Part shown: piece after piece, positions 31,747-37,295 of the stretch
Numbering within the stretch: the first letter of the stretch is position 1
How the letters are laid out: each line of letters begins with the position of its first letter
NCBI GenBank assembly: GCA_028724885.1
Contig: JAQYTJ010000024.1
Location: forward strand, 2,748-66,747
Source: Bacteroidales bacterium
GTDB taxonomy: Bacteria; Bacteroidota; Bacteroidia; Bacteroidales; UBA932
Direction of reading: 5' to 3'
Length of the DNA: 64,000 nucleotides
Translations under genes and position numbers: made by a program
The notes under the pieces: generated by a model
Told to the model about the DNA's origin: nothing
The model's database searches: none
What the model saw: only the letters and a program-made list of their open reading frames with translations

Positions 31747-33939
31747 TCAACCCTGAATCATAACCGTAAGTCCAGCCATAACAATGGAAACCATGCTCAT
31801 CAGCTTTATGAGTATATTCAGTGAAGGGCCTGACGTGTCTTTGAAAGGATCCCCTACTGTGTCTCCAACAACGGTAGCATGATGATTTACTGAATTCTTC
31901 CCGCCGAAATGACCATCCTCAACATATTTCTTTGCATTGTCCCATGCGCCGCCCGAGTTCGCCAGGAATATAGCAAGTATGAAACCTGCGCCCAAGCCTC
32001 CGATGAGCAATCCCATAACTCCAGCTGCTCCAAGAATGATGCCTACAAGCACTGGAACTATGATTGCCGTAAGAGCAGGACCTACCATTTCGTGCTGAGC
32101 CGCCTTTGTGGATATCTCTACGCAACGTTTGTAATCAGGACGCTGTTTGCCATCAAGGATTCCAGCTATCTCTCTGAACTGACGACGAACTTCCAGAACC
32201 ATTTTTTGAGCAGCACGGCCAACAGCATTCATAGTGAGCCCACAGAACAAGAATGCCATCATCGCGCCAATGAACACCCCAGCTAGAACCTTCGGATTCA
32301 TAAGCGTCACATTGTAGTAGTTCACCAGATCCACAAGGGTCGCCTTAGCGACTGCGACCACTTCATCGCCTGCATTAATCATCTCAATGCCCACGTGCTG
32401 CAGCCCAATCTTGATTTCCTCAATGTAGGAAGCCAGCAGAGCCAGTGCAGTAAGAGCCGCAGAACCAATAGCAAAACCCTTTCCGGTAGCAGCAGTAGTG
32501 TTTCCGAGAGCATCAAGGATGTCAGTACGATGACGTACTTCCGGATCCAAGTCGCTCATCTGAGCATTTCCGCCGGCATTGTCGGCAATTGGACCGTATG
32601 CGTCAGTAGCGAGAGTAATGCCAAGCGTTGACAGCATTCCGACAGCTGCTATGCTTATTCCGTACAGCCCGCTGCTCAGATTCTCAGGATTGAACGAAAA
32701 GCCAGAAGCACAGAGATAAGAAGCAAGTATTGCCAGCACTATTGTCACTACAGGAATAGCAGTAGAAATCATTCCTAGGCCGATTCCATTGATGATTACT
32801 GTAGCAGGGCCAGTCTGGGAGCTCTCGGCAAGTTTCTGAGTAGGCTTATAAGAGTGCGACGTGTAATATTCAGTTGCCTTTCCTATTATCACTCCTGCCA
32901 GCAGTCCAGAAATTACAGACAAACTGAGCTGCCACCAATTAGCAAAGCCTAAGAGTTTGAATATAAAGAATGTAGCAACGGCGATGAGAATCGCGGAAAG
33001 ATTGGTGCCGACGCTAAGCGATTTCAGCAGTTGCTGCAGCCCTGCATCTTCTTTCGTACGCACTGAATATATTCCTAATATAGAAAGCACCACTCCCACT
33101 GCAGCAATGGTCATAGGAGCTAGAATGGCCTTCATCTGCATTGCCGTATCACCAAAGAATGTGGAAGCCCCCAATGCCATGGTCGCAAGAATGGAACCGC
33201 AGTAGGACTCATAGAGGTCAGCGCCCATGCCAGCCACGTCGCCAACATTGTCTCCGACATTGTCAGCGATGGTCGCAGGATTGCGAGGGTCGTCCTCAGG
33301 GATGTCATTCTCCACCTTGCCAACGATGTCAGCTCCGACATCAGCAGCCTTGGTGTAGATGCCACCGCCGACTCTCGCGAACAAAGCCTGAGTGGAAGCA
33401 CCCATTCCGAATGTAAGCATCGTAGTAGTGATAACCACCAGATTTTGCGAAACATCAGGATCGTAAAATGCTTGAAGCACGAAGAACCATATTGAAATGT
33501 CAAGCAAGCCAAGGCCCACGACCGTCAGTCCCATCACGGCTCCGGAACGAAATGCGAGTTTCAAGCCAGAATTAAGCGACTTGCTCACTGCGTTTGCGGT
33601 TCTAGCAGATGCATACGTCGCAGTTCTCATCCCTATATAGCCAGCTAGCCCCGAAAAGAAGCCACCGGTCAGGAAAGCGAACGGCACCCAAGGGTTCTGA
33701 ACATTAAAACCGTATGCCAGAATAGCAAAAAATATTGCCAGAATAATGAAAACAATGAGAACTACCTTATATTGCTGCTTAAGGTATGCCATTGCCCCTT
33801 CTCTCACGTACTGAGCAATTTCTTTCATCGTTGGGGTACCTTCGCTCTCCTTCTTCATCTGATGGTAGAAAAGCCCTGCGAAGAACAGAGCCACGACTGA
33901 AGCTACAGGTACCAAGTAAAATAATGGGTCCATAAACAT
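31747..33939 (-). CDS. hppA: Membrane-bound K+-dependent pyrophosphatase (Na+ or Na+,H+ pump)
   Basis: GGIYTKAADVGAD, EDDPRNPATIADNVGDNVGD, DAYGPIADNAGG, GNTTAA (K+-dependent form), GDTVGDPFKDTSGP. Confidence 0.97.
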   Translation of the reverse strand: MFMDPLFYLVPVASVVALFFAGLFYHQMKKESEGTPTMKEIAQYVREGAMAYLKQQYKVVLIVFIILAIFFAILAYGFNVQNPWVPFAFLTGGFFSGLAGYIGMRTATYASARTANAVSKSLNSGLKLAFRSGAVMGLTVVGLGLLDISIWFFVLQAFYDPDVSQNLVVITTTMLTFGMGASTQALFARVGGGIYTKAADVGADIVGKVENDIPEDDPRNPATIADNVGDNVGDVAGMGADLYESYCGSILATMALGASTFFGDTAMQMKAILAPMTIAAVGVVLSILGIYSVRTKEDAGLQQLLKSLSVGTNLSAILIAVATFFIFKLLGFANWWQLSLSVISGLLAGVIIGKATEYYTSHSYKPTQKLAESSQTGPATVIINGIGLGMISTAIPVVTIVLAILASYLCASGFSFNPENLSSGLYGISIAAVGMLSTLGITLATDAYGPIADNAGGNAQMSDLDPEVRHRTDILDALGNTTAATGKGFAIGSAALTALALLASYIEEIKIGLQHVGIEMINAGDEVVAVAKATLVDLVNYYNVTLMNPKVLAGVFIGAMMAFLFCGLTMNAVGRAAQKMVLEVRRQFREIAGILDGKQRPDYKRCVEISTKAAQHEMVGPALTAIIVPVLVGIILGAAGVMGLLIGGLGAGFILAIFLANSGGAWDNAKKYVEDGHFGGKNSVNHHATVVGDTVGDPFKDTSGPSLNILIKLMSMVSIVMAGLTVMIQG

Positions 33940-33985
33940 TTAATAATTAACAAAATTCCTGAAACGATTTAAGCAGGTCGTGTTT

Positions 33986-34010
33986 AAAAAGGGTTCCTTT
34001 CAGAACCCTT
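33986..34010 (-). terminator. Terminator-like hairpin in the hppA upstream region
   Basis: Minus strand AAGGGTTC-TGAAAG-GAACCCTT-TTT. Could be the pdxST terminator or an hppA leader element. Confidence 0.6.
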
Positions 34011-34017
34011 GCGAATG

Positions 34018-34025
34018 CAAATATA
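34018..34025 (-). promoter_or_regulatory. -7 promoter box upstream of hppA
   Basis: TATATTTG(CA) on the minus strand. Confidence 0.55.
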
Positions 34026-34148
34026 TGCAAATAGATTGTTACTGCAATACTAATTTTTGATTTTATTCCTATCAAAAATGTCCATCACGCTAAAATTTTA
34101 TAAAATTTTAATTCGCCAGACCAAGAAATATGCCTGCCAAAAAGCACC

Positions 34149-34715
34149 CTAACCGAACATTCTGGCGAAATATTCATAGACCACCTGGCAATCGTCGAGT
34201 TCCGGGTGGAAGGCCGTAACTAACTGGTTCCCATCGCGAGCGGCGACTATATGCCCATCCACTACCGACAGCACTTCAACCCCAGCGCCAACGCTCTCAA
34301 TGTAAGGGGCGCGGATGAATGTCATGGGGATATCCTGCCCTGCGAAAGAGCCACGAGCATGGAAGCTGCCGAGCTGCCTGCCATAAGCATTGCGCCGCAC
34401 TGATATATTCATTGTGGAAAGGCGTTTGAAAGGGCTTCCCTCCATATTCTTAGCTAATAGAATCAGCCCAGCGCAAGTGCCGAAGACAGGCAACCCACCA
34501 AGAATCTCGTCTTTTATAGGATCCATCAGCCCAAGATCCACAAGCAGCTTGGACTGCGTTGTACTCTCTCCTCCTGGAATGATAAGCCCATTCTTCGGCT
34601 GATTCCAATCTTTTCTCTGGCGAACTTCGAAACAGGTTATCCCAAGCTCTCCAAGCAATTTCTCATGCTCGACGAAAGCACCTTGCAACGAAAGCACTGC
34701 AATGCGTCTGCCCAT
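34149..34715 (-). CDS. pdxT: Pyridoxal 5'-phosphate synthase glutaminase subunit
   Basis: LSLQGAFVEH, IIPGGEST, GTCAG, RRNAYGRQ, FIRAP, FHPE. Confidence 0.97.
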   Translation of the reverse strand: MGRRIAVLSLQGAFVEHEKLLGELGITCFEVRQRKDWNQPKNGLIIPGGESTTQSKLLVDLGLMDPIKDEILGGLPVFGTCAGLILLAKNMEGSPFKRLSTMNISVRRNAYGRQLGSFHARGSFAGQDIPMTFIRAPYIESVGAGVEVLSVVDGHIVAARDGNQLVTAFHPELDDCQVVYEYFARMFG

Positions 34716-34745
34716 AATCTCTTATGAATATTTTGCCTTTAGAGG

Positions 34746-35630
34746 CTATTTCCCTCTTTCGGCCATGAGAACCTTTATTTCCTGCTCGTTTATGCCAACC
34801 ATCGCCTCTCCGAGATCCTCACTGAGCTCGGCGAGCTTCTTGGCATCGCGGAAATTAGTGACAGACTGCACGATGGCAGCAGCACGCTTTTGAGGGTTTC
34901 CGCTCTTGAATATTCCGCTTCCCACGAATACACCCTCAGCACCAAGCTGCATCATTAGGGCAGCGTCGGCAGGGGTGGCTATTCCGCCTGCCGCAAAATT
35001 CACCACAGGCAGCTTGCCGTTCTCATGGACGTATTTCACGAGGTCGAGCGGAACCTGAAGTTCCTTTGCTTTCTCGAATATTTCGTCTTCGCTGAGCGAA
35101 ACAATCCTACGTATCTCACTCTGCATCAGTCGCATGTGCCTTACAGCCTGAATCACGTCGCCCGTTCCAGGCTCCCCTTTCGTGCGAATCATCGTCGCAC
35201 CTTCTGCAATTCTGCGCAAGGCCTCGCCCAAATCCCTGGCTCCACACACGAAAGGCACGTCGAATTTCGTCTTGTCGATGTGATAGACATCATCGGCAGG
35301 TGACAGCACCTCGCTCTCGTCTATGTAGTCTATTTCAATTGCCTGAAGTATTTGCGCCTCAACGAAATGCCCTATCCTGCATTTCGCCATCACAGGAATC
35401 GAGACTGCCTGCTGGATACCCTTTATCATCTTTGGGTCGCTCATTCTGGAAACTCCGCCAGCAGCACGAATGTCTGCCGGAATATGTTCCAACGCCATGA
35501 CTGCGCAAGCCCCAGCCTCTTCGGCGATTTTAGCCTGTTCAGCGTTTGTCACGTCCATGATTACTCCGCCCTTCAGCATCTGGGCGAGATTACGATTAAG
35601 AGTCTGTCTGTCTTGATTTTCCATATCCAT
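34746..35630 (-). CDS. pdxS: Pyridoxal 5'-phosphate synthase lyase subunit
   Basis: [49 protein letters not shown]. Confidence 0.98.
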
Positions 35631-35643
35631 GATATTATTAGAT

Positions 35644-36600
35644 TTATTTCTTTCTAGCCCTGTACTCGCTTGGCGAAAGCCCTGACATCTTCCTGAAGAA
35701 GCGAGACAAATGCGCCTGCGAAGAGAAGCCTGCGCCGTATGCTATCTCCTGGACAGTCTTGCTGGTGCTGTCCAGCTGCATTGCGATGTGGGCGGCCATT
35801 TTCTCATCTATGATTGACTTAGGAGCCCGTCCTGCAACCCTACGGCAGACCTGCGAAAGATAGCGGCTGCTGACATTCATCAAGTCGGCATAGAACTGCA
35901 CGTCCGTCCTCTTGCAAAGATGGTGTTCCAGCTGATCCAGGAAGTCGTTGTAGAGCTGCTGGCTCCGCCCTTGCAAATTGTCCGCTTTCAAAATCAGCCT
36001 TGCGGCATATTCATTGGCCTTCCTAATGGCATCTGCGCTGCCAAAGCCTTGGCTTAGGAATGTTGCCAAGGCAGACGAAAAGGCATTCGCCTGGCCATGC
36101 AAGGAGGAGCTTTCGCCTAGCAGGACGATTCTAGGGTCGTCCTCATTCTGAATCAGCCACCCGGCTTCGTCTCCACGGACAACGATGAGAGAGCAGAGCG
36201 GCATCAGCTGGTTACGAATCCTCATCGCAAGATCGTCATCCATTAGTCGTTCCCCCCTTGAGGACGTGAGAACAGGGTGGAAAACCACATAGTTCGGCTG
36301 GTAACGGACGATAGTCTGCGCAAGCATTTCTACCAGCTCAGGGCGGCGAATCATTCCAATCTTCAGAACGGAAGGCTCCACGTCATTCATTATAGCCTCT
36401 ATCTGTCCAATGACAATCGATGCAGGCAGGTCGTAAAACTGTTGGATCCCGACCGTGTTCTGCACCGTAACAGAGGTGATAGCAGAGACTGGCCTCCCTC
36501 CAAGACTCGTTATCGTCCTGACATCCGCCTGCTCCCCAGATTCTCCAGTGCTGTCTGAACCAGTGATAGTCAGCACTATGTTATTGTCCAGCTTCTTCAT
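35644..36600 (-). CDS. ThiD/PdxK-like (probably inactive) kinase domain fused to an AraC-family DNA-binding domain
   Basis: N-terminus [23 protein letters not shown]; C-terminus [39 protein letters not shown] 36600 preferred over the longer ORF start. Confidence 0.9.
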
Positions 36601-36681
36601 CACACAGCAAAATAAACCTAAAAATTCCAAAGTCAGAACGTCAGTTCTGAATATGCATAAAATAAACTAAATTCTGGCATG

Positions 36682-36709
36682 AAAAAAGGCGGCCCATAAA
36701 GACCGCCTT
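36682..36709 (-). terminator. Terminator of the ribosomal/alpha operon
   Basis: Minus strand AAGGCGGTC-TTTATG-GGCCGCCTT-TTTT downstream of rplQ. Confidence 0.85.
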
Positions 36710-36731
36710 CAACATATTCATTTAATATATC

Positions 36732-37295
36732 TTATTCAGCTTTTGGCGCTTCTTCTTCAGTCTTCGGAGCATCTGGAGCAGCTTCCTCTGCTTTCGGGGC
36801 TTTCTCTGCAAGAGACTCGGCCTTCGGAGCATCTGGAGCAGTAGCTTCGGCCTTTGGAGCAGCAGCTTTCTTAGAGCGGCTGCGGCGAGTTGTCTTCTTC
36901 TCCTCTTTCTTCTCTGGCTTAGATGCAAGAGCAGCTTCGTTGAAGTCAACAAACTCTACGATAGCCATATCGGCTCCATCTCCCAAACGGAAGCCGTTAT
37001 GCAATACGCGTAGATATCCTCCTGGACGGTCGGCGATCTTTGGAGCGATCGTTCCGAATAGCTCCTTGATAGCCTCTTTGTCCTTGAGGTAGCTGAACAC
37101 CATTCTGCGAGAATGAGTAGTATCCTCTTTACTCTTGGTCACCAGAGGCTCAAGATACATTTTCAGAGCCTTAGCCTTAGCGACCGTCGTGTTAATTCTC
37201 TTATACTTAATTATAGAGCAGGACATGTTGGCGAGCATAGCCTTTCTGTGGCTGCTCTTACGGCCAAGATGATTGATTGCTTTATTGTGCCTCAT
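36732..37295 (-). CDS. rplQ: 50S ribosomal protein L17 with A/E/K/P-rich repeat tail
   Basis: [23 protein letters not shown]. Confidence 0.97.

Follow-up and report, generated by a model that had tools for sequence, protein, structure and literature searches.

Control of vitamin B6 synthesis in bacteria is known almost entirely from PdxR proteins of the MocR type. PdxR, a MocR/GabR-type regulator of pdxS and pdxT (pdxST), the genes for pyridoxal 5'-phosphate (PLP) synthase, has been described in Corynebacterium, Streptococcus, Listeria and Bacillus (PMC10450172, PMC5320631). We analysed the pdxST locus of a Bacteroidales bacterium (lineage UBA932) in a stretch of 64 000 nucleotides, hereafter called the window (GenBank assembly GCA_028724885.1, contig JAQYTJ010000024.1, positions 2748 to 66 747). 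On its minus strand, pdxST is preceded by a gene (35644..36600) for a 318-residue protein in which a ThiD-like pseudokinase is fused to an AraC/XylS DNA-binding domain. Judging from its sequence, this protein is probably (at roughly two chances in three) a dedicated one-component AraC/XylS-type regulator of pdxST, whose sensor is a fossil of ThiD and is probably switched by PLP or another B6 vitamer. As with PdxR, a dedicated local regulator would stand beside pdxS–pdxT, with an enzyme-derived sensor, an expected feedback by PLP and repeated motifs at the pdxS promoter (candidates in the present case). However, PdxR consists of a GntR winged helix and an aminotransferase-fold domain to which PLP is bound covalently, whereas the AraC double helix-turn-helix (HTH) and the ribokinase-fold ThiD remnant of the window protein are unrelated to either of these domains.

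The use of an enzyme fold as the sensor of a transcription factor is a well known principle (MocR, ROK, BirA, NrtR). ROK repressors (NagC, Mlc, XylR), BirA, NadR, NrtR, NiaR and archaeal ThiR likewise recruit an enzyme or kinase fold to sense a ligand, but with other folds and other DNA-binding domains; to our knowledge none of them uses a ThiD-like domain or controls pdxST, and we know of no pdxST regulator described for Bacteroidota. What is new here is thus not the principle but the ThiD-remnant sensor, its pairing with AraC and the pdxST target. A preliminary description of the locus, made from the letters alone, had stated that no experimental account of such a protein was known; our full-text literature search likewise found no description of a ThiD–AraC fusion, and among the papers that it returned, those that compare genomes for B6 regulons and pathways deal with MocR-type regulators only. 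For a still undescribed B6 regulator of Prevotella-type bacteria of the gut and rumen, the fusion is the best candidate.

A ThiD remnant fused to an AraC DNA-binding domain

The regulator open reading frame (ORF) starts at ATG 36600 on the minus strand, near MKK..ILTITGSD, where its homologues begin. Its N-terminal part matches the Pfam profile Phos_pyr_kin over residues 16–151, which cover positions 1–135 of 246 (E = 5e-39). Residues 237–316 (35653..35892, minus strand) match the whole of HTH_18 (positions 1–80 of 80; E = 1e-20; 74 bits against a cut-off of 33.6), so the HTH fused to the ThiD-like domain is intact, as first proposed; the HTH_AraC profile gives 40 bits, and in the Protein Data Bank (PDB) this C-terminus matches the DNA-binding domains of SoxS and AraC. 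Neither a GntR winged helix nor a fold-type-I aminotransferase-like domain was found by Pfam in the protein. It thus resembles AraC/XylS regulators (AraC, XylS, RhaS, SoxS/MarA) in its complete C-terminal HTH_18 and in a candidate operator whose tandem direct repeats adjoin the core promoter, but differs from them in its sensor, a dead vitamin kinase rather than a cupin, a periplasmic-binding-like domain or another described AraC partner.

The sensor domain (residues 8–207; 35980..36579, minus strand) is a ribokinase-fold remnant of ThiD. In phmmer alignments with solved structures (7r8y, 4jjp, 7l07), its residues 8–148 align with ThiD residues 25–165, after which only 15 residues (149–163; 36112..36156, minus strand) stand in for ThiD 166–223. 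At this junction, which the family alignment also places here, the KGGH strand of ThiD and the hairpin that follows it are gone, for a net loss of about 43 residues (about 40 in the preliminary description). The anion hole and catalytic cysteine motif HGTGC has become HGQAN (residues 168–172; 36085..36099, minus strand), exactly at the coordinates first given. Moreover, LDPV has become FHPV at residues 107–110, and TPN has become VVR at residues 140–142 (TPNxxE to VVRxxE), with loss of the Mg-site asparagine. The protein retains GSD (14–16), QAD (24–26), QNT (47–49) and KIGM (80–83), as well as the C-terminal helix of ThiD. The list of kept and changed motifs drawn up from the letters alone is thus borne out by the alignments to ThiD structures.

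The comparison with ThiD and PdxK by profiles and structure, which had been suggested as a check, leads to the same picture. The AlphaFold2 model of the regulator (from a 38-sequence alignment; mean predicted local distance difference test score 92.7) has the ThiD fold, and its confidence falls only at the deletion junction and in the inter-domain linker. In a Foldseek search of the PDB, ThiD, that is hydroxymethylpyrimidine phosphate (HMP-P) kinases, rank first (7R8Y, 4JJP, 1UB0 and 1JXI; E-values from 4e-15 to 2e-11), and pyridoxal kinases are the next matches. TIGR00097, the NCBIfam equivalog profile for ThiD, gives 127.8 bits, under its cut-off of 204.95, and covers only positions 1–142 of 254. 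The likeness to ThiD (PF08543, TIGR00097; 1JXH/1JXI, 1UB0, 4JJP, 7R8Y) thus lies in the fold, in 26–30% identity, in the GSD, QAD, QNT and KIGM motifs and in the C-terminal helix, whereas the window protein lacks GTGC, the KGGH segment and the NxxE asparagine, carries a DNA-binding domain, falls below the curated cut-off and accompanies pdxST, not thi genes. The pyridoxal kinases of the ThiD family (Bacillus subtilis PdxK, 2I5B; Staphylococcus aureus PdxK, 4C5J-N) are also structural matches and show that the fold can bind pyridoxal; however, they are active enzymes with dual-cysteine or GTGC chemistry, and the match of the window protein to HMP-P kinases has the higher score. From these alignments the sensor is, as far as sequence can tell, a cut-down and catalytically dead copy of ThiD that keeps the substrate pocket without the parts for ATP binding and phosphotransfer.

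Public sources label proteins of this family hydroxymethylpyrimidine/phosphomethylpyrimidine kinase. The present assignment corrects a systematic annotation error that affects hundreds of entries. Such misnaming can fake thiamine or B6 salvage in genome-scale metabolic models, and the genome of the window has no real ThiD or PdxK.

Conservation and origin of the family

An exhaustive representative search also returned relatives of 357–391 residues that have a full-length ThiD-like domain and are equally dead. We tabulated residues over 148 proteins that carry both a ThiD-like and an AraC domain, split into short (deleted) and long forms. GSD, Gln24, Asp26 and Thr42 are conserved in 100% of both forms, and Lys80 and Gly82 in 99–100% of the short and 100% of the long forms. 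The catalytic cysteine is kept in none of the 148; in its place, 95% of the short forms have Asn and 65% of the long forms have Gly, so the claim of a dead kinase holds throughout the family (148/148). The asparagine position of TPN/NxxE carries Arg in 65% of the short forms and Arg or Lys in 100% of the long forms, while the aspartate of DPV is retained in 41% and 50%, respectively.

In a tree of the N-terminal domains with 30 ordinary ThiDs, all fusions form one clade (Shimodaira–Hasegawa-like approximate likelihood-ratio support 99), in which the long forms branch off at the base and the forms with the deletion are nested. The deletion is therefore derived, with fusion and loss of catalysis preceding it, and the fusion family has a single origin. 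Two proteins (P0024 and P0074) are intermediates that still hold part of the deleted segment. On this order of events, a ThiD gene was first duplicated, the copy was then joined to an AraC domain and lost catalysis, and the useless ATP half was finally deleted in a Prevotella/Segatella-type lineage. The family offers a clean enzyme-to-sensor series, from active ThiD to the full-length dead fusion and on to the fusion with its ATP half deleted.

In one genome (G265:C3:40402-41327; L100 5394-6418) the regulator is split into two overlapping frames of 219 and 199 residues, by a frameshift or a sequencing error. It is possibly a pseudogene, and precedes an intact pdxS with a good operator.

Linkage to pdxS and pdxT

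In the window the minus-strand genes follow one another in the order rplQ (36732-37295), regulator, pdxS (34746..35630, PLP synthase lyase subunit), pdxT (34149..34715, PLP synthase glutaminase subunit) and then hppA. The preliminary description had placed the fusion 13 bp before pdxS, at the head of pdxS–pdxT; the coordinates agree (13 nt between the regulator stop at 35644 and the pdxS ATG at 35630). By their NCBIfam scores both genes are genuine (pdxS, 505 bits with NF003215, whose cut-off is 395; pdxT, 197 bits with TIGR03800, whose cut-off is 105.55).

Among distant members of the family, four arrangements around pdxST are found: regulator, pdxS, pdxT in series (the window, P0123 and P0141), divergent (P0148 and G110), convergent (P0129) and pdxS, pdxT, regulator (P0154). 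We examined 50 species-level loci of GTDB genomes in which the downstream sequence was long enough. In 28 of them pdxS lies at most 700 bp from the regulator, and in nine about 0.9–5.2 kb from it, with inserted genes such as a transposase-like ORF, an AAA ATPase and a TonB-type receptor in between. The other 13 have no pdxS within 6 kb; 12 of these genomes were searched and all 12 have pdxS elsewhere. On the Segatella copri chromosomes for which the distance could be computed, pdxS is 6–12 kb downstream of the regulator on the same strand. Among 401 genomes sampled evenly across the order and searched for both genes, 18 have pdxS and seven have the fusion, which adjoins pdxS each time. No thi gene was seen beside any family member. 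The preliminary description would have been contradicted by homologues unlinked to B6 or thiamine genes; instead, every fusion genome examined has pdxS, nearly always adjacent or 1–12 kb downstream.

Closer to the window, three genomes of the same genus and one of the same family have neither fusion nor pdxS, so that the two are present or absent together within the genus, and this co-occurrence joins the seven adjacent pairs of the sample. In one of the same-genus genomes (G332:C2; L106), rplQ is directly followed by hppA, which represents the empty site corresponding to 33940-36731 of the window. Given this joint presence and absence and the empty site, the three genes behave as one module of 2.6 kb, gained or lost as a unit between rplQ and hppA.

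In the S. copri complex, variable inserts of about 1–12 kb separate the regulator from pdxST (L015, L019, L028, L036, L038, L040, L067). They contain a transposase-like ORF, an AAA ATPase with DUF4143-type sequence, a TonB-type receptor and lipoproteins. Numerous contigs of metagenome-assembled genomes end less than 600 bp past the regulator, suggesting a hotspot of repeats or mobile elements at this place.

Promoters and candidate operators

TAnnTTTG is the −7 consensus of Bacteroidetes. A predicted −7 box of this type for the regulator–pdxS–pdxT operon, TTATTTTG (36608..36615, minus strand), aligns with the TTCCTTTGCAGCC boxes of relatives. A longer regulator frame from TTG 36630 was rejected, because this codon lies upstream of the predicted box, which stands just 5' of ATG 36600. 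An mRNA started from this box would be nearly leaderless. A hairpin followed by a T-run (36682..36709, minus strand), recognized by eye and missed by the automated scan since its loop exceeds 8 nt, marks the end of the ribosomal/rpoA operon to which rplQ belongs, and a separate promoter is thus required for the regulator operon. A search of 33900-37000 against Rfam returned nothing relevant, and a riboswitch explanation was dropped.

Candidate operators are clearest in Segatella. In its pdxS promoters TTTRTAYATTYGGGAAY occurs three times, along with one variant unit, TTTATACAAAATGACGC; these are 17-bp direct repeats spaced by 21 bp, all in the same orientation, the last copy ending 28 nt upstream of the −7 box; the S. 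copri promoter has repeats TTTRTAYATTYGGGAAT and a TATACAAAATGAC unit. In this group, where pdxS has its own promoter, the region 5' of the gene represents a phylogenetic footprint; the spacers between the units are variable, and the array is retained even with kilobases of insert between pdxS and the regulator gene. The two promoter-proximal units are also present in distant members (L061, L063, L077, L100, L083, L085, L101-L103). In five Segatella genomes, paired sites occur at the pdxS promoter only, and matches with 0–1 mismatch are likewise confined to pdxS except for one single site in G402; single matches with two mismatches are near the level of a reversed-pattern control. No site scoring at least 10 was found in the pdxS promoters of fusion-less genomes.

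The corresponding candidate in the window is TTTATGCATATTCAGAAC (36644..36661, minus strand), placed by positional alignment 28 nt from the −7 box like the proximal Segatella repeat. It is a weak candidate, a positional analogue of that unit. A perfect inverted repeat read from the sequence, TCAGAAC-TGAC-GTTCTGA (36633..36650, minus strand), overlaps it.

Inverted repeats are also seen elsewhere. In Segatella pdxS promoters (e.g. L008 and L015), between the proximal repeat and the −7 box, GGAACAYTTTT...AAAARTGTTCC spans the core promoter, with compensatory changes between species (C/G in L008, T/A in L015). Its place 5' of the predicted transcription start means that it may serve as a second site for protein binding. 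In a fusion-less genome (L097; G220), the pdxS leader contains a long inverted repeat, ACCTGTACA...TGTACAGG, about 60–110 nt before the ATG, which may be a different control element acting at the RNA or DNA level.

Proposed mechanism and alternative readings

The regulator would act locally on pdxS–pdxT. In the window it shares its predicted promoter, just 5' of its own start, with pdxST; it would thus be co-transcribed with them and autoregulated. We suppose that it would dimerize through the ThiD-like domain and bind the direct repeats, acting mainly as an activator since the repeat sites lie upstream of the core promoter. A B6 vitamer in the retained pocket would switch its activity, giving an end-product feedback by PLP analogous to that of PdxR, and the Arg or Lys at the position of the former Mg-ATP asparagine may read the 5'-phosphate.

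The host genome, which is 98.5% complete, informs the choice of ligand. Our search of it found no thiC, thiE, true thiD, pdxK or pdxH; a second PF08543 match (C13) was rejected as a true ThiD or PdxK, being a ribokinase with a GAGD motif. PdxST is the only recognized route to PLP in this host. There is also no GntR frame longer than 277 residues, hence none long enough for a MocR-type PdxR. Because a host lacking thiC, thiD and thiE makes no HMP-P, sequence favours a B6 vitamer, most simply PLP, over hydroxymethylpyrimidine (HMP) as the candidate ligand.

Several observations weigh against a B6-responsive regulator of pdxST. Eleven of the 18 pdxS-positive genomes of the 401-genome sample lack the fusion, which thus cannot be what regulates pdxST throughout the order; no consistent neighbouring regulator was found in these 11, one of which has an Lrp/AsnC-like gene. 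In G110, which has two paralogues, the long form is divergent to pdxS, and the short deleted one (G110:C23:113290-114183; L104 4273-5187) is 57 kb away with no B6 gene near it. The Segatella-derived position weight matrix scores the candidate operator of the window at 0.4 and all window sites at 5.1 or less, and the window shows no statistical enrichment of a degenerate pattern of 18 nt (three matches for 1.2 expected, reached by 12 of 100 shuffles). As for the sensor, QNT is conserved in 96–98% of the short forms and in 40–70% of the long forms, so the pocket is perhaps not uniformly constrained. The domain is nearer to HMP-P kinases than to the pyridoxal-kinase branch (128 bits with TIGR00097 against 67 bits with PRK12412), and it retains the Gln of QNT of the HMP-P kinases. 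This Gln is typical of HMP-specific enzymes, with Met in pyridoxal kinases, and S. aureus PdxK has a flap cysteine. An ancestral reconstruction of HMPPK (PMC11229819) gives no list of the residues that set specificity for HMP or pyridoxal.

These last points bear on the ligand. Were the pocket to sense HMP, HMP-P or thiamine, B6 synthesis would be coupled to B1 status; the derivation of the domain from HMP-P kinases rather than from PdxK-type enzymes and the retained Gln47 would then be explained, and HMP had been allowed for from the outset. We consider this improbable, as the host makes no HMP-P, every context is that of pdxST without a neighbouring thi gene, and family-specific changes from Ala to Thr or Ser near the pocket (positions 13, 21 and 43) suggest an altered specificity. 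A pocket without any ligand is a little easier to conceive, though still unlikely: ThiD is a dimer and AraC regulators need a dimerizing N-terminal domain, so the dead kinase could serve solely as a scaffold, and pdxST would then respond to something other than a ligand, for instance the amount of the protein or a partner of it. This would suit the looser QNT motif of the long forms and the decaying DPV aspartate. Yet the invariance of GSD, Gln24, Asp26, Thr42, Lys80 and Gly82 among the 148 proteins, down to about 35% identity, exceeds what maintenance of a fold usually needs, and a vitamin-pathway regulator without an input would be unusual. As to a bifunctional enzyme-repressor in the manner of BirA or NadR, still phosphorylating HMP or pyridoxal, the public annotation and the lack of any other ThiD or PdxK in the host speak for it; the deletion of the ATP-binding segment, the loss of the NxxE asparagine, the absence of the catalytic cysteine in all members and a score of 128 bits for an equivalog cut-off of 205 make it very hard to believe.

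We therefore retain a PLP- or B6-responsive regulator of pdxST as the preferred interpretation. The repurposing of a dead kinase for this role, as put forward in the preliminary description, is supported by the linkage in four arrangements, the co-occurrence within the genus, the repeats at pdxS promoters and the absence of a MocR-type PdxR. A broader proposal, which we advance tentatively and at slightly less than even odds, is that the fusions form a new class of B6 regulator, in which the pocket and the basic residue replacing the Mg-ATP ligand would read PLP, and that they are the main switch of de novo B6 synthesis in Prevotella and Segatella. If so, they would control this synthesis in bacteria that are dominant in the communities of the human gut and the rumen. 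The fusion is in any case a concrete and easily testable candidate in S. copri and its relatives, where vitamin supply and cross-feeding draw interest, and it could supply a compact part for genetic switches that respond to B6 in Bacteroidales.

In a biofilm transcriptome of Prevotella bivia, pdxT, pdxS and a 'bifunctional HMP kinase' are among the top co-induced genes (PMC11410844). This circumstantial observation would fit an autoregulated operon, provided that this kinase is the fusion.

Neighbouring genes

The short paralogue of G110 is flanked by a beta-galactosidase gene and by an AAA ATPase gene, the latter adjoining a gene for an NhaC-like transporter. The closest relative of the regulator outside the species of the window (L007 6001-7809; 64% identity) is followed by a 248-residue ORF instead of pdxS, which we take, from its sequence by eye, to be YaaA-like. 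A YaaA family gene is among those co-induced with pdxST in P. bivia (PMC11410844), and this link may be a coincidence or an extra member of the regulon. Upstream of the regulator in the window, tblastn in relatives matches residues 1–119 only of the ribosomal protein L17 encoded by rplQ, and not its C-terminal tail of about 70 residues (36732-36960), which is of low complexity and rich in Ala, Pro, Lys and Glu.

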